From: a bacterium
GTDB lineage: Bacteria; CG2-30-53-67; CG2-30-70-394
Assembly (NCBI GenBank): GCA_024278555.1
Contig: JAJRSX010000183.1
Location: 4,043-68,042, forward strand
Reading direction: 5' to 3'
DNA: 64,000 nucleotides
Part shown: in pieces, positions 1 to 16,729 of the stretch
Numbering within the stretch: position 1 is the first letter of the stretch
How the letters are laid out: the number at the start of each line of letters is the position of its first letter
Made by a program: the position numbers and the translations under genes
Notes under the pieces: generated by a model
Databases searched by the model: none
What the model saw: the letters and a program-made list of their open reading frames with translations, nothing else
What the model was told of the DNA's origin: nothing

Positions 1-494
1 AGACGGTCACCGAGGGGATCCTGCGCTCGGGTATGCCGTCCCACGAGGATGTCTCCCTGGCAGATCGCAAGGCGGTGATCGCCTACATCAAGACCTTCTC
101 GCCGCGGTGGACCGAGGAGGAGCCGGGTGAGCCGATCAAGATCGGCAAGGTGCCCTCCTACGTGGGGACCGCCGCCTCGGTGAAGCGGGGCAAGGAGCTC
201 TACAAGAAGGTGGGCTGCTTCCAGTGTCACGGTCTGAGCGGCAAGGGCGACGGTCCCTCGTCGGCCACCCTGAAGGATGCATGGGGCGACGCGATCCTCC
301 CCTTCGATTTCACCTCGGGTGCCTTGAAGATGGGGTCGGGGCCGGTCGACATCTACCGGACCTTCGTTACCGGCCTTGACGGGACCCCGATGCCGTCGTA
401 CGAGGAGTCGCTGAGCGAGAAGCAGCGGTGGGATATCGTCTCCTACTGCCTCGCGGTGATGCAGCAGGGGAAGCCTCACCTCGCCGAGCGGTGA
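1..494 (+). CDS. c-type cytochrome, 5' end truncated by window edge (CxxCH = CFQCH); the frame is open from base 3
   Basis: The single CFQCH heme-binding motif is followed by GLSGKGDG. It lies immediately upstream of nosZ, as in clade II nos clusters, which carry a cytochrome c gene there. Confidence 0.6.
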   Translation, partial: TVTEGILRSGMPSHEDVSLADRKAVIAYIKTFSPRWTEEEPGEPIKIGKVPSYVGTAASVKRGKELYKKVGCFQCHGLSGKGDGPSSATLKDAWGDAILPFDFTSGALKMGSGPVDIYRTFVTGLDGTPMPSYEESLSEKQRWDIVSYCLAVMQQGKPHLAER

Positions 495-550: not shown

Positions 551-2380
551 ATGTCTAAATATTGGTTGCCAAAAACGCTGCGCTCTCGGCGTGGCATTCT
601 GTTTACCTTCTTGACCGCTTCGATTGCGACGGCGCTGGTGGTGGGCATCGTGTCCGTCCCCAGCCTCGTAGAGGCAAAAAAGAACAAGCTGCGCACCGAG
701 GTCCACCCCGGCGAGCTCGACGACTACTACGGCTTCTTCAGCGGTGGCCACTCGGGCGAGGTGCGGGTCCTCGGCCTGCCCTCCATGCGGCTCTTGAAGC
801 GCATCGCGGTGTTCAACGTCGACACCGGCAGCGGCTGGGGGATCACCAACGAGAGCAAGGCGATGATGGGCGGGATGATCGTCGGCGATACCCACCACTG
901 CCACGGCTCCTACAAGGACGGGACTTACGATGGCAAGTATCTGTGGGTCAACGACAAGGCGAACAACCGCCTCGCCCGCATCCGGCTGGATCTCATGGAG
1001 ACGGACTCGATCATCAAGATCCCCCACGTCCAGGGGACCCACGGCACCTTCCCGCAGCGCTACCCGCAGACCGACTGGGTGGTGGTGAACAGTGAGTTCC
1101 GGACCCCGGTGGACAACGAGGGCAAGGGGAACTTCGAGGATCCGTCCACCTACGGCGGTGTCCACACGATCGTCGATGCCCACAAGATGGAGGTGATCGC
1201 CCAGGTGATCGTGCCGTGCAACCTCGACCTCGCCGGCACCGACTACCAGGGCAAGTACTCCTTTGCCACCTCCTATAACTCCGAGGGGGGCGCCACCATC
1301 TCGCAGATGCTCGCCAGGGATCGGGACTGGCTGGTGGTCTTTAACTGGGACGCGATCAAGCAGGCTCTGAAGAAGGGGAGCTACAAGGTGGTGGACGGGG
1401 TGAAGATGCTCGACGGCAAGCCGGGCACCGGCCTCGCGATCTACATCCCGATCCCCAAGAATCCGCACGGGGTGAACATCAGCCCGGACGGCAAGTACGC
1501 GATCGCCTCGGGCAAGGTCTCGCCGACCGCGAGCGTCATCGCCATTGACAAGCTCGCCGACGCCTTCGCCGGCAAGATCAAGCCGAAGGACTGCATCGTC
1601 GCCGAGCCGCAGATCGGCCTCGGGCCGCTGCACACCACCTTCGACGGCCGCGGCAACGCCTACACCTCGCTGTTCATCGACAGCCAGATCGTCAAGTGGA
1701 ATATCCAGAAGGCGATCGACCTCTACCAGCACCCGAAGGAGGGGGATACGGCGGTGGTCGACCGCCTCGACATCCACTACCAGGTGGGCCACACCATGGC
1801 GTCGATGGCCGAGACCAAGGAGGCGGACGGCAAGTTCCTGGTGTCGCTGAACAAGATCTCCAAGGACCGCTTCCTCAACGTCGGCCCCCTGAAGCCGGAG
1901 AACGACCAGCTCGTCGACATCTCCGGGAAGAAGATGCGGTTGATCGAGGACGAGCCCTCCTACGTGGAGCCCCATGACTGCATCATCGTCCGCCGCGACC
2001 TCGTCGAGCCGCACGTCCTCGATCGGGCGGTGATGGATGAGCACCCCCTGGCGGTGCACAAGAACGCCATTGAGCGCGACGGCAACAAGGTGACCGTCCA
2101 CCTCACCGCCAACGCCCCGGTCTATGGGATGCAGAAGGTTGAGGTAAACGAGGGGGATGAGGTGACCTTTATCGTCACCAACCACGATGAGATCCCCGAC
2201 CTCTCCCACGGCTTCTGCATCTCCGAGTACAACATCAACTTCGTGGTCGGCCCCTTCCAGACGAAGTCGGTGACCTTCACCGCCGACAAGCCGGGGATGT
2301 ACTGGATTTACTGCACCAACTTCTGCCACGCCCTTCACTTGGAGATGCGTCTCCGCCTCTTGGTGAAGGCGAAGGCGTGA
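551..2380 (+). CDS. nosZ: nitrous oxide reductase NosZ
   Basis: 609 aa with the C-terminal CuA motif HGFCISEY...YCTNFCHALHLEM and a His-rich CuZ region (DTHHCHGSYKDG). The N-terminus has RSRRGILF (TAT-like), and an AAGGAG RBS sits 7 bp upstream. Confidence 0.9.
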   Translation: MSKYWLPKTLRSRRGILFTFLTASIATALVVGIVSVPSLVEAKKNKLRTEVHPGELDDYYGFFSGGHSGEVRVLGLPSMRLLKRIAVFNVDTGSGWGITNESKAMMGGMIVGDTHHCHGSYKDGTYDGKYLWVNDKANNRLARIRLDLMETDSIIKIPHVQGTHGTFPQRYPQTDWVVVNSEFRTPVDNEGKGNFEDPSTYGGVHTIVDAHKMEVIAQVIVPCNLDLAGTDYQGKYSFATSYNSEGGATISQMLARDRDWLVVFNWDAIKQALKKGSYKVVDGVKMLDGKPGTGLAIYIPIPKNPHGVNISPDGKYAIASGKVSPTASVIAIDKLADAFAGKIKPKDCIVAEPQIGLGPLHTTFDGRGNAYTSLFIDSQIVKWNIQKAIDLYQHPKEGDTAVVDRLDIHYQVGHTMASMAETKEADGKFLVSLNKISKDRFLNVGPLKPENDQLVDISGKKMRLIEDEPSYVEPHDCIIVRRDLVEPHVLDRAVMDEHPLAVHKNAIERDGNKVTVHLTANAPVYGMQKVEVNEGDEVTFIVTNHDEIPDLSHGFCISEYNINFVVGPFQTKSVTFTADKPGMYWIYCTNFCHALHLEMRLRLLVKAKA

Positions 2381-2483
2381 GCAGAGCCCTGGCGGGATAG
2401 CTGTTTGGGGTGGCCGGTCGGTGGGGCCGGCCACCCCTCCCGCCTCCTTGGTGACGGTCTCTCCCTAACGCGGAAGGTCTCTC

Positions 2484-5400
2484 TTGTATCGCCAGTCCAT
2501 ACGAAGCCTCTTCATTCTCGCCGTACTCGCTCTGGTAGTGCTTGCCCGGGCGGCGTCGGCGCAGATCCTCTTTGGCGAGAAAAAGTACCCGTACGAGCTC
2601 GGTGACGTCCTCCCGGGCGCCGCGGAGTTCGTCGAGCAGGAGGGGTACTGGGAGGCGTATGGGGCGGGCGGCAAAGGCGGCGACCCGGTGGGGTACGTCT
2701 TCCTCTCCGACAACCTGGTGGAGATCCCGGGCTACTCGGGCCACACCCTGAACACCTTGGTGGGGCTCGATCCCACCGGCAAGCTCACCGGCGTAAAGAT
2801 CGTCAGCCACGCCGAGCCGATCGTCCTCATCGGCCTGGACGAGCAGGTGATCCTCGACTTCGTCGCCCAGTACCCGGGCCATGACATTCGCGACCGGATC
2901 CTTATCAGCAACACCCCGAAGAGCGGCTACGTGACCGTGGACGGGATCAGCGGCGCCACGGTCACCGCGGTGGCGGAGAACGCCACCATCCTCAAGGCGG
3001 CGCGGACCGTGGCCAAGCAGGTGGGGATCGTCAAGGCGTCGGAGGTGCGTAGCCGCCGCCCCGCACCGGACTACCGCCCCCTCGACTGGCCGGCGCTGGT
3101 GGCGAACAAGGCGATCGGCCACCTCTCCCTCACCCCGGAACAGCTCCACCGCAGTGGCGACGACTCCACCCTCGACCTCTACTACGCGATCCTCGACGCC
3201 CCGGCGATCGGCCGGAATCTCCTCGGAGAGCGCTACTTCAAGATCGTCCAGGAGCGGGTGGCGCACGATGGGGGGTGCGCCCTCTTCATCGGCGCCCGCG
3301 GCCCGGTCTCCTTCAAGGGGGCGGGGTTTGCCCGCGGCGGCGTCTTCGACCGCTTCTCCCTGGAGCAGCAGGGCGACCTCTTCGTCTTCAAGGACATGGA
3401 TTACGTCAACCACTTCGACCTCCCCATCGAGGGCGGCGTGGAGCTCCATGAGGGGGGGGTCTTCTACATGAAGAACCCCGACTTCGATCCCGCCCAGCCC
3501 TTCACCTTCCACCTCACCCTCCCGTACCGGGTGGGGGACAAGAAGGAGTACGCCACCTTCCTGAGCGACTACGAGCTGCCCGCCGATTTTGTCGAGGAGG
3601 AGGTCCCCTTCTGGGTGACCCGCTGGCACGAGGCGCAGATGGAGGCGGCGGGTCTCGGCCTCTTCCTGATCGCGGCGGCCGCCCTCTTCACCTTCCGCCG
3701 CCGCCTCCTGCCGTACCGCAAGTGGTTCCACCGGTCCATCGCGGTGGTGGCGGTGGTGTGGGTCGGCCTGCTGATGCATGCGCAGCCCTCCACCACCCAG
3801 ATCCTCACCCCGGTCAACGCGGCGGTGCGCGGCAAGTTCCCCTTCGAGATCTTCCTCTCCGAGCCGCTGATCTTCTTGTTCTGGATCGCGATCCTCCTCT
3901 CCCTGCCCCTGTGGGGACGGGGCTTCTTCTGCGGCTGGCTCTGCCCCTACGGGGCGCTTTTGGAGCTCCTCACCACCGTGTGGCACAAGGTCGCACCCAA
4001 GCGGCTGGTGCGGCGCATCGATCGATGGGATCCGGGGCGCCTGTGGCGGTGGGGTAAGTACGCCACCTTCCTGGTGATCCTCGCGGTGGCCTTCGCCTCC
4101 CTGCCGGCGGCGGAGATGCTCGATGAGGTGGAGCCGTTCAAGACCTTCATCCTGCGCCTCGTGCGTCCGTCCCACTTCGTCGCCTACTTTGTCGTGGTCA
4201 CCGTCGGTTCGATGGTCGTCTACCGCGCCTTCTGCCGCTTCCTCTGTCCCCTCGGCGGGGCGCTGGCCCTGGTCTCCTTCAAGCCTCTCGACAAGCTGAA
4301 GCGGTACGAGCACTGCGGGACGTGCCACATCTGCTACAAGGGGTGTGAGCCGAAGGCGATCTCTCACGAGACCGGCCGAATTGACTACCGCGAGTGCCTC
4401 CACTGCTGGGACTGCCAGTCCACCGGTGAGGACCCCGCCCGCTGCCCGGAGCTGATCACCGCGGCCAAGAAGGGGCGGCCGGTGCGCCTCATGCTCCGCG
4501 CCTCGATCCTGGCGCTGTGCCTCGTCGCCACCACCGCGAGCGCGCGCACCTGGCAGGTGGCGCCCGAGGGGCGCCCGCTTGCCAAGACGCTGGCGGCGGC
4601 CGCCGACGGTGACACCGTCGAGGTGGCCGCCGGTCTCTACCGCGGCAACTTCGTGGTGGCGACGCGGATCACCCTCCACGGCGCCGACGGCGCGATCCTC
4701 GACGCCGGCGGTACGGGCCACGTCCTCGGGATCCAGGCGGCGGGGGTGGTGGTGGAGGGGCTCACCCTGCGCAACAGCGGCACCAATTCGGAGCGCTCCG
4801 ACTCGGGGATCTTTCTGGCGCAGTTGGCCGCCGACGTGCGCCTCCTGCACAACCGGGTGGAGCACTGTTGGTTCGGGATCTGGATCCACGGCAGCCCGCG
4901 GCCGGTGCTCATCGGCAACCGCATCGAGGGGATGGCGGAGATGCGGGTGAACGATCGGGGCGACGGGATCCACCTGTGGGACGTGGACGGCGCCGAGATC
5001 CGCGACAACACGGTCGTTGACAGCCGCGACGGCATCTACATGGAGCTGAGCCGCAACTGCCGGATCGTCGGTAACACCATCGAGCGCTCCCGCTACTCGA
5101 TCCACACCATGTGGTGTGACGGCAGCGCTTACAACGAGAACGTGGCGCGGGGCAACTATGTGGGGCTCGCCCTGATGTTCTCCAAGGGGATCGAGGCGCG
5201 CGGCAACACCCTCTACGACAACCGCACCCACGGCATCCTCCTGGTCCAGGATACGCGCAGCGAGATCGTCGACAACCGCCTGATCTCCAACACCAAGGGG
5301 CTGTTCGTCTACAACTCCCTCTACAACAAGATCCGCGGCAACCTGGTCGCTCGCAACCACCTCGGGATGCACTACTGGGGCGGCTCGGAGGACAACGAGG

Positions 5401-5795
5401 TCAACGACAACGCCTTCATCGACAACGAGATCCAGGTAAAGTTCGTCGCCTCTCGCGACCAGCGGTGGGACGGCAACTACTGGAGCGACTACCTCGGCTG
5501 GGACATCGACCGCGACGGCCGCGGCGACGCCCCGTACCTGTCGAACACCCTGGTGGACTCCCTCCTGTGGAGGTACCCGGCGGCGAAGCTCCTGCTCACC
5601 AGCCCCGCCTTCCAACTCCTGGCGGCGGCGGAGCGCGCCTTCCCGGTGATCGCGGTGCCCAAGGGTGAGGACCGGTCGCCGCGCATGGCGCCGATGTTTG
5701 TCGACTGGCAGGGAACCCTCGACCGTTACCCGGAGGTGGCCCACCGGTACTACGGTCACCTCTCGAAGCTGCCCCATATTCCTGGGGGGCACTAA
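2484..5795 (+). CDS. NosR-like (periplasmic FMN-binding domain + TM + 2x4Fe-4S ferredoxin) fused in-frame to NosD (periplasmic parallel beta-helix Cu-insertion protein); TTG start
   Basis: The N-terminal part has the FMN_bind flavinylation motif DGISGATVT, multiple TM helices, CPYGALLEL, and the Cys clusters CGTCHICYKGCEP / CLHCWDCQS. An internal ATG at 4491 begins MLRASILALCLVATTASA (an intact signal peptide) followed by NosD hallmarks: RGDGIHLW, FIDNEIQVKFVASRDQRWDGNYWSDYLGWD, RAFPVIAVP. No stop codon separates the two parts. Confidence 0.75.
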   Translation: MYRQSIRSLFILAVLALVVLARAASAQILFGEKKYPYELGDVLPGAAEFVEQEGYWEAYGAGGKGGDPVGYVFLSDNLVEIPGYSGHTLNTLVGLDPTGKLTGVKIVSHAEPIVLIGLDEQVILDFVAQYPGHDIRDRILISNTPKSGYVTVDGISGATVTAVAENATILKAARTVAKQVGIVKASEVRSRRPAPDYRPLDWPALVANKAIGHLSLTPEQLHRSGDDSTLDLYYAILDAPAIGRNLLGERYFKIVQERVAHDGGCALFIGARGPVSFKGAGFARGGVFDRFSLEQQGDLFVFKDMDYVNHFDLPIEGGVELHEGGVFYMKNPDFDPAQPFTFHLTLPYRVGDKKEYATFLSDYELPADFVEEEVPFWVTRWHEAQMEAAGLGLFLIAAAALFTFRRRLLPYRKWFHRSIAVVAVVWVGLLMHAQPSTTQILTPVNAAVRGKFPFEIFLSEPLIFLFWIAILLSLPLWGRGFFCGWLCPYGALLELLTTVWHKVAPKRLVRRIDRWDPGRLWRWGKYATFLVILAVAFASLPAAEMLDEVEPFKTFILRLVRPSHFVAYFVVVTVGSMVVYRAFCRFLCPLGGALALVSFKPLDKLKRYEHCGTCHICYKGCEPKAISHETGRIDYRECLHCWDCQSTGEDPARCPELITAAKKGRPVRLMLRASILALCLVATTASARTWQVAPEGRPLAKTLAAAADGDTVEVAAGLYRGNFVVATRITLHGADGAILDAGGTGHVLGIQAAGVVVEGLTLRNSGTNSERSDSGIFLAQLAADVRLLHNRVEHCWFGIWIHGSPRPVLIGNRIEGMAEMRVNDRGDGIHLWDVDGAEIRDNTVVDSRDGIYMELSRNCRIVGNTIERSRYSIHTMWCDGSAYNENVARGNYVGLALMFSKGIEARGNTLYDNRTHGILLVQDTRSEIVDNRLISNTKGLFVYNSLYNKIRGNLVARNHLGMHYWGGSEDNEVNDNAFIDNEIQVKFVASRDQRWDGNYWSDYLGWDIDRDGRGDAPYLSNTLVDSLLWRYPAAKLLLTSPAFQLLAAAERAFPVIAVPKGEDRSPRMAPMFVDWQGTLDRYPEVAHRYYGHLSKLPHIPGGH

Positions 5796-5997
5796 TCCAA
5801 GGGAGGTAGGGATTAGGGATGTAGGAAAATAGGGGAGGACAGCCCTTCGGGCTGATAAATATGCTGATGGAAGCCACCCACAAAACAATCATCGTCGGCC
5901 GCAGGCCGGCACCACCCCGATCTCCCTCACCCCTCACCCCTAACCCCTAAACCATGTCCATTGAGCAAATAGAGGCACCTCGTTTCGGGAGCACCCC

Positions 5998-6888
5998 ATG
6001 ATCCGTCTCGAAGCGGTCTCCAAGCGGTACGGCGAGCAGGTCGCCCTGCGCGCCATCGATCTGGAGATCCACCGGGGGGAGTGGCTCGGACTCTTCGGCC
6101 ACAACGGCTCGGGCAAGTCGACCCTCCTGCGCCTGCTGCTCGGCCTCACCCGCCCGACCACCGGGAGCCTGCTCATCGACGGCAAGGCGCCGAGCCCGGC
6201 CGGGTGGCGCCGCCTGCGCGAGCGCATCGGCTTCATGCCGGAGCGCATCGCCTTCTACGACCACCTCACCGGCCGCGAGATCCTCGCCTATTTCGGCCGC
6301 CTGCGCGGCGTCGGCGGGGAGCGGGTGGCGGCGGTCCTGGAGCAGGTGGGGCTGGAGGCGGCGGCGGATCGGCGGTTGGCGGGCTACTCCAAGGGGATGC
6401 GCCAGCGTCTCAACCTCGGCCAGGCCCTCCTCGGCGATCCCGAGATCATCTTCGCCGATGAGCCGGTGGAGGGGCTCGACCCCCAGGGGGTACGCGCCTT
6501 CTTCGACCTCCTCCACGCCGGGCGGGTGGAGACGGTGGTGATGTCGTCGCACCGGCTGGCCGAGTGTAGCCACCGGGTCGACCGTATCTGCGTCCTCAAC
6601 CAGGGGGAGGTGCGGGCACTCGGGTCGGTGGAGGAGCTCAGTCGCGACCTCCACCCCCCGGTCCACGTCCACGTCTACCCCTCCGAGTCCGCCAACGGCT
6701 CCCTCCAGACTACCCTCACCAATCTCGGCGCCACCGACGTGTCGATGCACCAGGGGGCGTGGGTGGCGGAGGTAGCGCAGGGGTCGAAGGTCGCATTCCT
6801 CGCCGGTCTGGCGGGGTGTCAGCCGCAGATCCGCCACCTCCACATCGAGGAGCCGAGCCTCGAGGAGCTCTACTTTGAACACGAGTGA
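5998..6888 (+). CDS. nosF: ABC transporter ATP-binding protein NosF
   Basis: Walker A motif GHNGSGKST, an ABC signature, and position directly after nosD. Confidence 0.8.
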   Translation: MIRLEAVSKRYGEQVALRAIDLEIHRGEWLGLFGHNGSGKSTLLRLLLGLTRPTTGSLLIDGKAPSPAGWRRLRERIGFMPERIAFYDHLTGREILAYFGRLRGVGGERVAAVLEQVGLEAAADRRLAGYSKGMRQRLNLGQALLGDPEIIFADEPVEGLDPQGVRAFFDLLHAGRVETVVMSSHRLAECSHRVDRICVLNQGEVRALGSVEELSRDLHPPVHVHVYPSESANGSLQTTLTNLGATDVSMHQGAWVAEVAQGSKVAFLAGLAGCQPQIRHLHIEEPSLEELYFEHE

Positions 6889-7711
6889 CCAGGTCCTGGC
6901 CATCGCCCGCAAGGAGCTCACCGACCGCCTCCGCAACCGGTGGGTGTGGACGGTCTCCGCCCTCCTCTTCCTCTGTACCGTGGTGATCGCCCTCTTCGGC
7001 GCCGCACCGGTGGGGGTGGTGGGCAACAAGGGGGCGGGTGCGGCCATGGCGAGCCTGATGAACCTGGTGGCCTACCTGGTGCCGCTCATCGCCCTCATCC
7101 TCGGCTGCGGGGCGATCATCGACGAGAAGCAGCGCGGCACCCTCGACCTCATCCTCGTCTACCCCCTGTCGCCGCGGGCCTACTTCGCCGGCACCTTCCT
7201 CGGCTTCACCCTCGCCCTGGCCATCGCGGTGGTGGTGGGCTTCGCCCTCTCCGGCCTGCTGCTCGTCTTCTGGGTGGGGGTCCCCGCTGTCGAGTACCTC
7301 ACCCTCACCGCGCTGGCCCTGCTCCTCGGGACGGCCTTCCTCGCCCTGTCGTTTTTCGTCTCCCTCCTGTCGCGCGAGCGCGGCCGGGCGATCGCCTCGT
7401 CCGTCTTCCTGTGGATCTTCGCGATCTTTGTCTTCGACCTGATCCTCGTGGGGATCCTGGTCCTCTCCGGCGGCAAGGTGCCCGCCTCCCTCTTCGGGGC
7501 GCTGCTCCTCGCCAACCCGGCCGACTGCTTCCGGATCCTCTGCTTCCAGTGGATCGGCAGCGCCGCCACCCCCCTCGGGCTGGCCTCGGTTGCCCCGGCG
7601 GGGCTGCCGGCGCCGCTCCTCCTGGTGATCCTCGCCTTCTGGGTAGTGGTCCCGGTGGTGGCGAGCTACTGGCTCTTTCAACGTCGCGTCGACCGTGACG
7701 CGCTGGTGTGA
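6875..7711 (+). CDS. nosY: ABC-2 type permease NosY
   Basis: A 278-aa polytopic membrane protein that overlaps the nosF stop, occupying the nosDFY position. Confidence 0.7.
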   Translation: MNTSDQVLAIARKELTDRLRNRWVWTVSALLFLCTVVIALFGAAPVGVVGNKGAGAAMASLMNLVAYLVPLIALILGCGAIIDEKQRGTLDLILVYPLSPRAYFAGTFLGFTLALAIAVVVGFALSGLLLVFWVGVPAVEYLTLTALALLLGTAFLALSFFVSLLSRERGRAIASSVFLWIFAIFVFDLILVGILVLSGGKVPASLFGALLLANPADCFRILCFQWIGSAATPLGLASVAPAGLPAPLLLVILAFWVVVPVVASYWLFQRRVDRDALV

Positions 7712-7739
7712 TTTGTGGTTCCTCTTTAAGGAGAAGTCG

Positions 7740-8378
7740 ATGTTCACAGACGCGTGGGTGGTGGCGACGGCGCTGTTGTTGGTGGCGGTGGGTGGGGCGG
7801 AGGCCGGCGAGCTCCACGGCCGGATCGCCACCCCGAGCTGGGGTACGGCGGTGGTGTGGGTGGAGGGGGTCAAGGGCGACGTACCGCACCAGGAGACCCC
7901 CCTCACCCACGTCCGCGGCGGCAAGTTCCGTCCGCACGTGGCGATCGGCTTCGTGGGCAACGACTTCGTCTTCCGCAACAAAGACAACCGGATGCACAAC
8001 ATCCACCTCAACCTCCGCCTCGCCCGCCACGAGGCGGTCTCGGGTCGATCGCTCCTCTATGGGGCCACCCTCTACAACATCGCCCTGCCGGCGGGGAGCA
8101 AGTCGGTGCGGCGGCCGATCAAGGAGAGCTTTCGCTACCGTGACGAGACCGGCTTCATCGAGGTGACCTGCGACCCGCACCCGCGCGAGCGGGCCTTCAT
8201 CCTCGTCTTCGCCCACCCCTTCGCGGCGGTGACCGCGGAGGACGGCACCTTCTCCATCCCTGGCGTCCCCGCGGGGCGCCACCCGGTGCGCTACTGGCAG
8301 GGAGGGAAGGTGGCCGACGGGGGGGTGGTGGAGGTGGGCGCGTCGGGGGTGACGGAGGTGGTGGTGGGCAAGGAGTAG
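7740..8378 (+). CDS. hypothetical periplasmic protein (Sec signal peptide ...GGAEA), occupying the NosL position in the nos cluster but lacking the NosL motif
   Basis: ATG with an AAGGAG RBS. The signal peptide is MFTDAWVVATALLLVAVGGAEA. The protein has only one Cys and no recognisable copper motif. Confidence 0.45.
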   Translation: MFTDAWVVATALLLVAVGGAEAGELHGRIATPSWGTAVVWVEGVKGDVPHQETPLTHVRGGKFRPHVAIGFVGNDFVFRNKDNRMHNIHLNLRLARHEAVSGRSLLYGATLYNIALPAGSKSVRRPIKESFRYRDETGFIEVTCDPHPRERAFILVFAHPFAAVTAEDGTFSIPGVPAGRHPVRYWQGGKVADGGVVEVGASGVTEVVVGKE

Positions 8379-8385
8379 CTCGGTC

Positions 8386-8973
8386 GTGGGGCGGGTGAGG
8401 CGGATGGTGGCGGCGGCCGGGCTGGCTGTCGTGACCCTGATCGGGAGCGGGGCCGGGCGTGCTTCCGCGGCGCCCCTGCAGCCTTCCGCGGCGTCCCTGC
8501 CACGCTTTGCGCTGCCCAACTGGGACGGCCGGGTGGTGACCAACGACGCCCTCCTCGGGCAGCGCGCCATCCTCGTCTTCACCTACGCCAAGTGCGTGGT
8601 CGGCTGCCCCACGGTCACCTTTCGTCTCAAGGGGCTCGACGACGAGCTCGGCCACCCGTCGGACCTCCGCTTCGTGCTGATCTCGGTCAACCCCGCCATC
8701 GACACCGCGGAGGAGGTCCTGCGTCACTTCCACACCTGCGACATCGACCCGCAGCGCGATCCCCGCTGGCTTTTTCTCGGCGGGAGCGAGCAGCAGGTCG
8801 CACCGGTCCTGGCGGAGTACGGCATCGTGGTGAAGCATACGGCCACCCCTCTGGGGGACCTCATCAAGCACACCATCAAGGTGGTGGTGGTCGGCCCCGA
8901 CGGGCGGCCGACAGCCACCTTTTCCACCTACCAGTGGGATTCAGAGGAGATGCGCCATGCCCTTGGCCTGTGA
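8386..8973 (+). CDS. SCO1/SenC family copper chaperone (thioredoxin-like, CxxxCP)
   Basis: Signal peptide, then the FTYAKCVVGCPTVT motif and a conserved His in VVKHTATP. Confidence 0.8.
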   Translation: MGRVRRMVAAAGLAVVTLIGSGAGRASAAPLQPSAASLPRFALPNWDGRVVTNDALLGQRAILVFTYAKCVVGCPTVTFRLKGLDDELGHPSDLRFVLISVNPAIDTAEEVLRHFHTCDIDPQRDPRWLFLGGSEQQVAPVLAEYGIVVKHTATPLGDLIKHTIKVVVVGPDGRPTATFSTYQWDSEEMRHALGL

Positions 8974-10027
8974 CCGCGACGCGGACGGAACCCTCGACCG
9001 GCGGGCCTTCCTGCGCCTGGCCGGATACGGCAGCCTCACCCTCCTCGGTGGTCCGCTCCTGCCGCGCCGCGCCGCCGCGGCGGTGGACCCGGCGGCGGTC
9101 ACCCGGATGGAGATCGAGGTGAGCTACCGCACCGAGGTGCGGAGCCTGCCCAGCGACGCGGAGCGGCTTCACCTCTGGATGCCCCTGCCGCCGGCGACGC
9201 CGAGCCAGGAGGTCCACGACCTCACCGTGCAGGCGTCGCTCCCCCACGAGGTGCGCAGCGAGCCGCTGTTTGGCAACCGGATGGTCTACGTCGCCAGCGG
9301 TCGCACGCCGAGCCGCTTCACGGTCGAGGCGCGCTATCGGATCGTGCGCCACCGGGCTACGGTGGAGTCGGCGGCGCTGTCACCAGCGGCGACGAAGCGT
9401 TACCTCCGCCTGCCGGGGAGGATGCGGGTCACCCCCGAGATCGACGCCTTCGCCCGCAAGGCGATCGGGGGGGCGAACGAGCCGACGCAGGTCGCCCGAC
9501 GGGTCTATGACGCCCTCATCGACTACCTCACCTACGACAAGCAGATCGCCGGCTGCGGCACCGGCGACACTGCCTGGATCATGAAGAGCCGGCGCGGCAA
9601 GTGCAGCGACTACCACGCCCTCTACACCGCCATCCTCCGTTCGCGAGGGATCCCGGTGCGCTGGGAGCAGGGCTTCCCCCTCCCGTACCCCACCGCCGGA
9701 GTCCGGGCACACGGCAAGCTGGCGGGTGATTGCACCGGCGCCCACTGCTGGGTGAGCTTCCATGATCCGGCGCGCGGCTGGGTGCCGGTGGACTGCTCCG
9801 AGGCGGACAAGCACCCCGAGCTGCACGACTTCTTCTTCGGCCACCTCACCCCGAACCGCTTCCAGATCTCCGAGGGGCGCTCCATCACCCTCAGCCCCGC
9901 CCAGGGGGGAGAGCCGCTGCCCGACTTCGCCTTCGCCTACGTCGAGGCGGACTCCATTCCGCTGATCTACCCGGCGAACTACGAGAACCTCGTCCGCTTC
10001 CGGGTTACCCGGATGGAGACCGCATGA
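8957..10027 (+). CDS. transglutaminase-like cysteine protease superfamily protein with TAT signal
   Basis: The TAT-type N-terminus is DRRAFLRLAGYGSLTLLGGPLLPRRAAAA. The transglutaminase core is GKCSDYHALYTAILRSRGIPVRWEQG ... GAHCWVSFHD ... VDCSEAD (Cys-His-Asp). Confidence 0.65.
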   Translation: MPLACDRDADGTLDRRAFLRLAGYGSLTLLGGPLLPRRAAAAVDPAAVTRMEIEVSYRTEVRSLPSDAERLHLWMPLPPATPSQEVHDLTVQASLPHEVRSEPLFGNRMVYVASGRTPSRFTVEARYRIVRHRATVESAALSPAATKRYLRLPGRMRVTPEIDAFARKAIGGANEPTQVARRVYDALIDYLTYDKQIAGCGTGDTAWIMKSRRGKCSDYHALYTAILRSRGIPVRWEQGFPLPYPTAGVRAHGKLAGDCTGAHCWVSFHDPARGWVPVDCSEADKHPELHDFFFGHLTPNRFQISEGRSITLSPAQGGEPLPDFAFAYVEADSIPLIYPANYENLVRFRVTRMETA

Positions 10028-10533
10028 CCTCCCGTTGTGCCAGGACCCTCGCCCCGATCCTCGCCGGCCTCCTCCTTCTCGGGGGAGTGGCCGAGGCGAA
10101 GGTCGCCAGGGTCGGTGAGCCGCCGCCCCTCTTCGCCCTGAAGGACGAGCAGGGGAGGATGCACCGCCTCCAGGACCTCCTCGGCAAGCCGATCATCCTC
10201 TACTTCACCCAGAACATGTGCCACTACTGCACCCAGGTGATCGGCTTCCTGAAGCGGGCCAACGCCGCCTATGGGGACCGGGGGCTTACCATCCTCACCC
10301 TCAACGTCTGGGCGGACAGCCCCAAGTACATCCGCCGCTACCGGGAGCAGTTTGGCCTGCCGTTCACCATGCTCCGCGGCAAGGACCGGGACCTCCTGCG
10401 GGGCTACGAGGTGAACTACGTCCCGATCATCGTCTTCATCGGCCGCGACGGCCGGATCCACCGCATCTTCGACCACTACATCCTCCCGGCCGACTTCGAG
10501 GCGAGCGTCCGGGAGATCGTGGAGGGGAAATGA
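10024..10533 (+). CDS. TlpA-like periplasmic thiol:disulfide oxidoreductase (redoxin family)
   Basis: Signal peptide plus the CxxC motif FTQNMCHYC, on a thioredoxin fold. Confidence 0.75.
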   Translation: MTSRCARTLAPILAGLLLLGGVAEAKVARVGEPPPLFALKDEQGRMHRLQDLLGKPIILYFTQNMCHYCTQVIGFLKRANAAYGDRGLTILTLNVWADSPKYIRRYREQFGLPFTMLRGKDRDLLRGYEVNYVPIIVFIGRDGRIHRIFDHYILPADFEASVREIVEGK

Positions 10534-11036: not shown

Positions 11037-11205
11037 GGCTGGGGATTGGGCTGGGGCTTGAAAGGGGGGGCCAGTTACAAGGGCGCGAAGAGGGGGAGAT
11101 CCTCCCCGTGATATGGGAGGGGTGGGGGGAGTAGGGTGGGGAGATTGGAGGTGGAGGCGGGGGCTGAGGGGCAGCGGATGGGGCAGGGCGGACAGGGGTG
11201 GTGAT

Positions 11206-13619
11206 ATGGGGTGCGAGAGCTTTGATGGATTGTTCCGGCGGGCCACTGGCTTCGAGGAGCCATTCGGCTATCAACAGCGACTTGCCTGCGATTACGGGGC
11301 GGACGATTTCCCGGAGCTGGTGGATGTTCCCACCGGGTTGGGCAAGACGGCGGCAGTGGTGTTGGCGTGGCTGTGGCGGCGCCGGTTTCATCCGGATCGC
11401 GCGGTGCGCAACGCGACTCCACGGCGCTTGGTCTATTGCCTCCCGATGCGGGTGTTAGTGGAGCAGACCCACGACAACGTTGTCGCGTGGCTGGACCGTC
11501 TCGGCCTTCACGGCGAAGCGGGAGAGGGCAAGGTCTCCGTTCATCTCCTCATGGGCGGCGAGGACGACCTCCGTTCGTGGGCGGACTACCCCGAGGAGGA
11601 GATGGTCCTCATCGGTACCCAGGACATGTTGCTCTCTCGGGCACTGATGCGCGGCTACGGTATGAGCCGCTACCAATGGCCAGTCCACTTTGCCCTCCTG
11701 CACAACGATGCCCTGTGGGTTCTGGATGAGGTGCAGCTCATGGGGCCGGGGCTGGCCACCGCCTGCCAGCTTGAAGGGTTGCGGCGACGTCATGCGACAG
11801 CGCGGCCGGCGGCGACTCTGTGGGTTTCCGCTACCTTGCACCGTGACTGGCTCAGCACGGTCGATCTGCGGCCTCATCTGGACGGCTTCTCCATCCACCG
11901 AGTGAGCGGCGAGGAGATTGGTCACGACGCCATCCGAGAACGGTGTGAGGCGACAAAGACGATCGCGGCGGCATCTGTGAGTGCCCCAGCGCAGGCGGCT
12001 ACACAGGCGGGTACACGCGCCTACGTTCAGGCCCTCGTCGAAGAAGTTGCCGCTCGACACAAGCCTGGCTCCACCACCCTGGTTGTGGTCAACACCGTGG
12101 GCCGAGCGCAGGCGGTGTACACCGCCCTCGGCAAGGCAGGTGTTACGGCGGACCGGTTGCTGGTCCACGGCCGATTTCGTCCGTCAGAGAGGCGGCGTGC
12201 AAACGAAGCTCTGCGTGAGGAGCCGGGCCACGACGGTCGCATCATCGTTGCCACCCAGGCAGTGGAAGCGGGGGTCGACCTCACCAGCCGCACCCTCTTC
12301 ACCGAGCTTGCGCCGTGGTCTTCCCTGGTTCAGCGGTTCGGTCGCTGCAATCGGTACGGAGAAGAGGCGGAGGCACACATCTATTGGATCGATCTCGATG
12401 AGACCAAGCTCGCCCCGCCGTATGAGGCCGAAGAGCTGGCGCGGGCGCGCGCGGTGGTGGAACAGCTTTCCAGTGCTAGCCCAGTGGACCTGCCCCCGGT
12501 CTCCGGCGACCGGCCCCTCTACCCGGTCCTGCGCGACAAGGACCTCCTCGACCTCTTCAATACCGACTCCGACCTGTCGGGCTTCGATGTCGATGTCTCC
12601 CCCTACATCCGCGACGCCCAGACCACCGACCTGCGTGTCTTCTGGCGCGACCTTTCCGCCGGCGTGGACGGCCAGCCGCGGCCGGAACGCGACGAGCTCT
12701 GCACCTGCCCGGTGGGGGAGGTGGCGGCATACCTCAAACGGATCGCCAAGGATGGCGGCCGTGTCTACCTCTGGGATGGGCTCGGCGAGCGGTGGGCTCC
12801 CCTGTCCGGGCGGCCCCGCCCCGGCGTGGTCCTGATGCTCGATGCCGCCCGTGGCGGTTACGACGAGGGGCTCGGTTTCGCCAGTGGAGCGAAGAGGCCG
12901 GTGGCTCCCGTGGTGTCGCCCGACGTTTCGGTTCCGGAGACTTACGGTGGAGACACACGTAGCCACCTCACTGAACCGATCCCTCTCACGGATCACATCG
13001 GCCACGTAGCAGCGGTGACAGCCCAACTTGGTCGGGTGGTCGGGGCCGATGGAGACACTGAAGCCGTGTGCCGGGCCGCTGCCTGGCACGACGTGGGCAA
13101 GGCCCACGAGGTGTTTCAGCAGACCCTGACCCGTTGCCCACGGATGACCGACCGCCCCGGCGGTCCGTGGGCCAAATCACCCTGTGGTGGTCGCCACGCC
13201 CGCCCCTACTTCCGCCACGAGCTCGCCTCGGCCCTTGCCTGGCTCGCCCACCATGGTGACGAACCAGAGGCCGACCTGGTCGCGTACCTCATCGCCGCCC
13301 ACCACGGGCGGGTGCGCATGGGGATTCGTGCCCTGCCCGGCGAGAAAGAGCCGCCTGGGCCCGGTCGCCGTTTTGCCCGCGGCATCTGGGAAGGTGACGA
13401 CCTGCCGGCGCTCGTGCTCAACGACGGCGAGAGACTGCCGGCCATCCGGCTTGACCTCCACCTGATGGAGCTAGGCACCGGGCCTCAGGGCCATTCATGG
13501 ACAGCTCGCACCCAGGGACTGCTGGCGCGCTTCGGTCCCTTCCATCTCGCCTGGCTAGAGAGCCTGGTGCGCGTCGCCGACTGGCGCGCCTCGCGCGTCG
13601 AGCAGGAGGAGGAGCTGTC

Positions 13620-13623
<4 letters not shown>
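11206..13623 (+). CDS. cas3: Cas3 helicase with C-terminal HD nuclease domain (type I-G/I-U architecture)
   Basis: DEAD/DEAH helicase motifs (VPTGLGKTA, VLDEVQLMG), a helicase C region, and C-terminal HD motifs (AAWHDVGKAHEVF, AAHHGRV). ATG at 11206, though the ORF is open from 11113. Confidence 0.85.

Positions 13624-16729
<3,106 letters not shown>

Follow-up and report, generated by a model that had tools for sequence, protein, structure and literature searches.

We analyzed a 64,000-nucleotide (nt) stretch of the bacterial contig JAJRSX010000183.1 (assembly GCA_024278555.1, positions 4,043 to 68,042; hereafter the window) and found that its nos cluster for nitrous oxide (N2O) respiration encodes the membrane iron–sulfur flavoprotein NosR and the periplasmic protein NosD in one gene. 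This gene, nosRD (2484..5795, + strand), is a real fusion gene, conserved in evolution, whose product is a single precursor of 1103 amino acids (aa). In the reading we consider probable, NosRD is a polyprotein in which an internal signal peptide between the two halves exports NosD and is then probably cleaved, an event that we infer from the junction sequence. An earlier note on this DNA, made from its letters and open reading frames, had reported a single 1103-aa frame joining NosR to NosD, and our analysis agrees: the frame contains no internal stop, and every motif named there is present, including DGISGATVT, CPYGALLEL, two ferredoxin cysteine clusters and an ATG at 4491.

The nosRD reading frame opens at a TTG codon with a GGAAGG Shine-Dalgarno sequence 6 nt upstream and runs uninterrupted through both proteins, all features lying on the + strand. 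Its first 26 residues (2484..2561, ending ARAASA↓QILFGE) form a predicted signal peptide or first transmembrane helix of the NosR part, marked by a hydropathy peak at aa 8–26 and a low predicted local distance difference test score (pLDDT) at aa 20–30. The following periplasmic domain (aa 27–385; 2562..3638), assigned from profile matches, alignment and the literature on its outward orientation, contains a flavin mononucleotide (FMN)-binding region that matches Pfam FMN_bind over aa 83–164 (26.8 bits against a cutoff of 22) and carries the flavinylation motif DGISGATVT at aa 153–161 (nt 2940–2966), in which A158, T159, V160 and T161 are invariant among 60 aligned sequences. A NapH-like membrane module (aa 386–597; 3639..4274) contributes five hydrophobic helices, seen as five hydropathy peaks within aa 386–587, and two CX3CP motifs at C483–P488 and C584–P589, with C483, C487, P488, C584, C588 and P589 all invariant, the first residue of CPYGALLEL at aa 487, and two Pfam Fer4_5 matches in the NosR part. 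The NosR part closes with a ferredoxin-like domain (aa 598–661; 4275..4466), recognized from sequence motifs and alignment, whose two 4-Cys motifs (C611/614/617/621 and C638/641/644/654) are at least 90% conserved and predicted to bind [4Fe-4S] clusters. Next comes the putative internal signal peptide (aa 662–687; 4467..4544), delimited by junction alignment, hydropathy and a pLDDT below 50 at aa 663–685, and then the NosD beta-helix domain, which with the stop codon fills the remainder of the gene (aa 688–1103; 4545..5795) and is supported by profile, Protein Data Bank (PDB) and model matches.

Both halves are complete and retain the signatures of NosR and NosD. The NCBIfam equivalog model for NosR, NF046105, aligns to aa 37–663 over model positions 19–680 of 680 (E 8e-138) with a score of 460.7 bits, below its 1000-bit equivalog cutoff; by this profile the NosR part is a divergent homologue from a non-proteobacterial branch and not a strict equivalog. 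The NosD model TIGR04247 matches aa 699–1068 over positions 1–376 of 377 (417.6 bits, above the cutoff of 300), Pfam NosD (PF05048) scores 164.3 bits against a cutoff of 23.6, Pfam Beta_helix is also matched, and residues 32–420 of the PDB NosD chain 7o0y_A align to aa 700–1068 (E 3.4e-78). AlphaFold models both halves confidently (mean pLDDT 82) and renders the NosD part as a right-handed beta-helix of regular 3-strand repeats with a pLDDT of ~95; the predicted template modeling score (pTM) of 0.46 means that the relative placement of the NosR and NosD halves is not confident and that the model does not inform how they dock. On the opposite strand, a 1203-aa open reading frame (2277–5888, − strand) gave no Pfam match and was set aside as a shadow frame typical of DNA with a high guanine–cytosine (GC) content.

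The fusion recurs well beyond this genome. A homologue search of 5.8 billion proteins, clustered at 90% identity, returned ~60 clusters of ~1090–1200 aa that carry both NosR and NosD domains and whose identity to the window protein falls from 90% to 51%, together with P0065, a 1097-aa fused member at 36% identity. The fused set as a whole (P0001–P0057, P0059, P0064, P0065, P0067 and P0129) spans 36–90% identity and includes N-truncated members from further lineages (P0064, P0067 and P0129). These proteins belong to uncultured bacteria and come from independent ENA, JGI, NCBI and Logan assemblies, two of them on long-read contigs of 2.4 and 4.3 Mb, and their source labels name Nitrospirae/Nitrospirota metagenome-assembled genomes (MAGs), Vicinamibacterales/Acidobacteriota and Candidatus Binatia. 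Two close relatives, L001 (80% identity) and L002 (78%), were found by scanning genome contigs with the single protein and are likewise Nitrospirae/Nitrospirota MAGs. Distant members retain the gene order cytochrome c–nosZ–nosRD–nosF–nosY–Sco–transglutaminase–thioredoxin, and the 60-sequence alignment shows little or no variation at the cofactor residues of either half.

The earlier note had raised the possibility of an assembly or sequencing error or of a recent stop-loss fusion. An artefact or recent accident confined to this genome, whether a sequencing or assembly error, a very recent loss of the stop codon or pseudogenization, draws some plausibility from the separation of nosR and nosD in the great majority of nos clusters: in a second search, of 1.84 billion representatives at 50% identity, only the P0047, P0065 and P0129 types were fused among the best 150, and the rest were stand-alone NosR or NosD. 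An error is nevertheless refuted by the ~60 independent 90%-identity clusters, drawn from differing samples, assemblers and phylum labels and including the long-read contigs, and a recent event by the presence of the fusion in homologues down to 51% identity and, in further lineages, at 36–45%. Invariant catalytic and cofactor residues in both halves and a junction under purifying selection also oppose this explanation, which we regard as extremely improbable. Because only three of the best 150 representatives at 50% identity are fused and the others stand alone, the NosR–NosD fusion is, among the sequences surveyed, rare among nos systems overall and stable inside its lineages. Comparison with orthologous nos clusters, proposed in the earlier note as a check, has two answers: the genes are fused in ~60 clusters and unfused in L003, L007 and L008.

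Public databases already list the fused proteins, each under a partial name: 'NosD' in PGAP annotation and 'NosR/NirI regulator' at JGI. Since each label names one half alone, surveys of nos accessory genes in MAGs labeled Acidobacteriota, Binatia or Nitrospirota will mis-score nosR or nosD as missing. The full-text literature that we searched, whose coverage is incomplete, yielded no description of a NosR–NosD fusion; the matches were lacZ fusions, HzsBC fusions and a nosP–nosQ fusion. Other variations in NosR length also appeared in the search. Many NosR homologues (P0071–P0079, P0082–P0089 and others) measure ~860–890 aa, ~150 aa above typical NosR, and the 1162-aa P0152 has a ~500-aa N-terminal extension ahead of NosR. 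In the close NosR relative P0063 (667 aa), the C-terminus becomes a Ser/Arg-rich stretch shortly before the second Cys motif, which looks like a frameshift, from sequencing error or pseudogenization, in a nosRD gene that is otherwise probably fused.

The junction between the halves has the layout of a signal peptide. In the window protein it comprises a positively charged n-region (KKGRPVRLMLR, net +5), an h-region (ASILALCLVA) and a c-region (TTASA), and signal peptidase I is predicted to cut between A687 and R688 (nt 4544/4545; TTASA↓RTWQV). Stand-alone NosD proteins align to NosRD from aa 661–684 onward, with their N-terminal signal peptides falling colinearly on aa 662–687; by alignment, the linker is a homologue of those signal peptides, in accord with the earlier note's view that the NosD signal peptide was kept internally. 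Across 53 full-length fused homologues the junction sequence has diverged freely and its architecture has been kept. The n-region remains positive (mean net charge +2.8) and the hydrophobic core mostly measures 8–14 residues. Relative to the predicted site, position −1 is Ala in 51 of the 53 and Gly in the other two (0.23 bits of entropy), position −3 is A, S, G, V or L in 48, position −6 is Pro in 23, and position −2 is the most variable column (3.34 bits), accepting even Arg and Glu. The first conserved NosD strand (xTWxVxP) begins 1–2 residues past the cleavage site, as it does in stand-alone NosD. Judged from these columns, the pattern is that of classical signal peptidase I recognition, maintained by selection. 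In L003, which belongs to an unfused lineage nested among the fused ones, the same element is an ordinary N-terminal signal peptide.

We propose a topology in which the fusion would function without further change. According to PMC5928378, NosR/PceC proteins have their FMN domain on the outer side of the membrane. Hydropathy and the structural model order the window chain as an N-terminal signal peptide or first transmembrane helix (ending ASA↓Q), the large domain with the FMN site, five helices and the Cys-rich domain, and this odd number of helices fits an FMN domain outside and an iron–sulfur domain inside. The iron–sulfur domain of Pseudomonas stutzeri NosR is reportedly cytoplasmic, a result ascribed to Wunsch and Zumft in 2005, and by analogy the Cys-rich domain of the window NosR would be cytoplasmic as well. 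With that domain inside, the chain would therefore be in the cytoplasm as the internal signal peptide emerges. In the proposed sequence of events, the NosR part would insert first, placing its FMN domain in the periplasm, passing five helices through the membrane and leaving the 2x[4Fe-4S] domain, and with it the growing chain, in the cytoplasm. Oriented N-in/C-out, the internal signal peptide (aa 662–687) would then re-engage the Sec translocon and bring the NosD beta-helix across to the periplasm, the compartment in which NosD would work with NosF and NosY. Signal peptidase I would most probably cut after A687, releasing free periplasmic NosD and leaving NosR with one extra C-terminal membrane segment, the two products arising 1:1 at the same membrane site. 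On this partly deduced topology the fusion is coherent without any other change, because the N-in/C-out orientation of the signal peptide carries NosD to where NosFY and NosZ are.

A precedent for one gene that encodes two exported or membrane-bound respiratory proteins is the Bradyrhizobium japonicum cytochrome b/c1 polyprotein FbcH, which is said to be cleaved at an internal signal peptide (work attributed to Thöny-Meyer and colleagues, 1989 and 1991). NosRD has an FbcH-like layout in one open reading frame, an upstream polytopic protein followed by a signal peptide and a mature periplasmic partner, with the cytoplasmic end of NosR taken from knowledge of the family. By analogy, each would be a polytopic redox protein with a cytoplasmic end, joined to a periplasmic partner via the partner's signal peptide, so that one gene probably yields two proteins in NosRD too. 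The protein families are unrelated, however, and cleavage is experimental for FbcH whereas for NosRD we infer it. If NosRD is indeed cleaved, it would join a very small group of bacterial respiratory polyproteins that are processed at an internal signal peptide.

The main competing account keeps the chain intact: the internal signal peptide would stay uncleaved as a seventh transmembrane anchor and hold NosD covalently on NosR, coupling NosR to NosDFY. The conservation of the frame across ~60 lineages means that the single chain may itself be selected, gene fusions often mark physical partners, and the uncharged stretch at the junction averages 18.8 residues and reaches at least 24 in some members. 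Against this, a near-invariant Ala at −1, a small or aliphatic residue at −3, a free −2 and Pro or Gly at −4 to −6 serve no role in a plain anchor, which would have no use for a helix breaker and would also be expected to have a longer hydrophobic core than 8–14 residues. The site and the first NosD strand are only 1–2 residues apart, a distance that matches cleaved stand-alone NosD and leaves no evolved spacer; one lineage appears to have returned to separate genes with the same element as a normal signal peptide; and in the AlphaFold model the segment does not pack on the NosR helix bundle, with aa 663–685 falling below a pLDDT of 50 and forming a helix of 9 residues only. The proposal in the earlier note that the old signal peptide now serves as a membrane anchor is thus possible and is made less likely by the selected −3/−1 pattern and short h-region, and we judge a permanent tether unlikely, while giving it real weight. 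The further claim that the uncleaved chain, held through a seventh helix, makes NosR and the NosDFY copper-sulfide maturation machine one obligatory membrane complex seems doubtful to us; if true, it would be natural evidence that NosR takes part in CuZ assembly or repair at the step carried out by NosDFY, beyond donating electrons to NosZ.

Several points weigh against the polyprotein reading itself. The cleavage step is a prediction from sequence. The −3/−1 pattern was hand-scored, the aligned sequences are related and so not independent of one another, and a few homologues carry poor −3 residues (Pro in two and Arg in one). An uncharged stretch of 15–24 residues could span the membrane as a signal anchor, and the cytoplasmic position of the iron–sulfur domain is carried over from P. 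stutzeri NosR. Finally, the neighbor-joining tree behind a single old origin with a secondary split, described below, is a rough distance tree built on 281 columns.

The unfused relatives suggest how the fusion arose. The classical proteobacterial order is nosR–nosZ–nosD, and in the window and its relatives it is nosZ–nosR–nosD, with nosR directly beside nosD. In the unfused clusters L007 (P0068) and L008 (P0100), the nosR stop and the nosD start overlap by 4 nt as ATGA or GTGA (AAATGATG and CTGTGAGA), NosR ends a few residues past its last Cys motif and NosD opens with a signal peptide. The probable origin of nosRD is a pair of adjacent nosR and nosD genes, translationally coupled by such a 4-nt overlap, whose frames were joined via a single-base insertion or deletion; because the L007 and L008 genes overlap by 4 nt, a one-base change would merge the frames. 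The codon for M670 (ATG, 4491..4493, + strand), which is followed by LRASILALCLVATTASA↓RTWQV, is a candidate relic of this event. Since the L007 and L008 NosR end and NosD start are the pieces that abut in the window protein, M670 is most simply, and on this comparison probably, a relic of the ancestral nosD start codon.

This same codon underlies another account, already raised in the earlier note, in which nosRD contains a nested gene: free pre-NosD would come mainly from initiation at ATG 4491 and the read-through fusion would be incidental. M670 lies exactly at the expected ancestral nosD start, Met is retained there in the closest relatives (the window, P0001–P0009, L001 and L002), and the window and L004 each have a GTG three codons upstream. 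However, a nested start is not a conserved mechanism. Met occupies that column in only ~20 of the 53 fused homologues, the others having L, V, I, T, A, W or K; L006 has no ATG, GTG or TTG from the iron–sulfur domain to the h-region; and in the window the only Shine-Dalgarno-like motif, AAGGGG, stops 15 nt short of the ATG, compared with a Shine-Dalgarno spacing of 6 nt at the starts of nosRD and nosF. We dropped L004 as a second case lacking any start codon, as its column reads ATC but the GTG lies three codons upstream, which leaves only L006 clean. Independent initiation would also leave unexplained why the junction is in frame, free of stops and nearly constant in length, and the frame, lacking a stop codon, yields the full-length chain whatever happens at 4491. 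We therefore consider initiation at ATG 4491 as the main source of NosD improbable, and see weak support at best for it as a supplementary route.

To place the fused proteins among their relatives, we built a neighbor-joining tree from the membrane and iron–sulfur region of NosR (281 columns). The main-clade fused proteins group together, and an unfused trio, P0058, P0060 and P0061, is nested among them. In L003, the locus of P0058, nosR ends in TGA TAG and a 20-nt spacer separates it from a nosD with a normal N-terminal signal peptide (ending AAGPAVAVA↓GTRIV), which suggests that this nested unfused lineage is a secondary split of a fused gene. P0065 lies apart from the main clade, next to an unfused protein, a position suggesting either that it was fused independently or that the fusion is of older origin. 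Because the tree is rough, counts of fusion and fission events are provisional.

Comparison with known systems places each half of NosRD in a characterized family. Like P. stutzeri NosR/NirI, a protein needed for N2O respiration, the window NosR combines a periplasmic FMN_bind domain bearing the SGAT threonine, a NapH-like module with two CX3CP motifs and a C-terminal 2x[4Fe-4S] Cys pattern, and it is encoded beside a clade I nosZ; it differs in that its gene lies after nosZ and not before it, and in that the protein runs on past the iron–sulfur domain into NosD. The NosD half resembles NosD of the NosDFY complex (PDB 7O0Y) in its full-length TIGR04247 match, its 7o0y_A match, its beta-helix model and the nosF and nosY genes downstream, and differs in having its signal peptide internal, after 661 NosR residues. 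The unfused nosZ–nosR–nosD clusters L003, L007 and L008, from related uncultured bacteria, share the gene order, homologous proteins (45–61% identity in NosR) and a NosD signal peptide that ends in a small-x-small motif right before the first beta-strand; they differ by the stop codon, set in the 4-nt ATGA or GTGA overlap in L007 and L008 and in TGA TAG with its 20-nt spacer in L003.

The role of NosR is debated, with proposals that it donates electrons to NosZ, keeps CuZ active or forms part of the maturation machinery, and a sequence search of the PDB found no NosR structure. A long-kept fusion offers independent evolutionary evidence that NosR and NosD act in fixed proportion at the same membrane site, whether the chain is cut or uncut, and indicates that NosR and NosDFY are closely linked in function. 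It also makes nosRD a natural construct for co-purification or cryo-electron microscopy of NosR with NosDFY.

The gene neighborhood sets nosRD within a nos cluster encoded on the + strand. A cytochrome c gene (33..494) lies upstream of nosZ (551..2380), which encodes a twin-arginine translocation (Tat)-dependent clade I nitrous oxide reductase (TIGR04244, 836 bits against a cutoff of 625) and stands directly upstream of nosRD, so that NosR is encoded within the cluster. Directly downstream of nosRD are a nosF-like ABC ATPase gene (ABC_tran; 5998..6888, with a Shine-Dalgarno sequence 6 nt before its start) and a nosY-like ABC-2 permease gene (ABC2_membrane_2; 6875..7711). An accessory set follows, comprising genes for a 227-aa protein with a weak CarboxypepD_reg/fn3 match (7695..8378), SCO1/SenC (8386..8973), a transglutaminase-core protein (8957..10027) and a thioredoxin/AhpC-TSA protein (10024..10533). 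This series after nosY (a ~220-aa protein, SCO1/SenC, transglutaminase-core and thioredoxin-like proteins) is conserved, with its L004 counterpart at 13010–15843, and the nos cluster of the window contains no nosL. An accessory set without nosL suggests an alternative copper-delivery route in this clade. On the P0025 contig an ApbE gene follows the accessory set, and the distant fused member L006 has nosL in its place.

Several non-coding features flank nosRD. A GC-rich hairpin, GGGGTGGCCGG...CCGGCCACCCC, occupies 2399–2432, right after the nosZ stop and ahead of the nosRD start, and could be an attenuator that sets the ratio of nosZ to accessory-gene expression. At the other end, a non-coding spacer of ~200 nt (5796–5997) separates the nosRD stop from the nosF start, genes that overlap by 4 nt in the distant relatives L004 and L006. 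It contains imperfect G-rich/C-rich inverted repeats (TAGGGATTAGGGATG at 5807–5821 and CACCCCTAACCCCTA at 5935–5949) and shows partial conservation in L001, the relative at 80% identity, and conservation of its start in L002; the spacer matches no Rfam family, and its fold energy does not beat that of shuffled sequences (z = −0.86). Directly downstream of the nos cluster, at 11113–13623, lies a gene for the Cas3g helicase/nuclease of a type I-G clustered regularly interspaced short palindromic repeats (CRISPR) system (TIGR02621, 828 bits).

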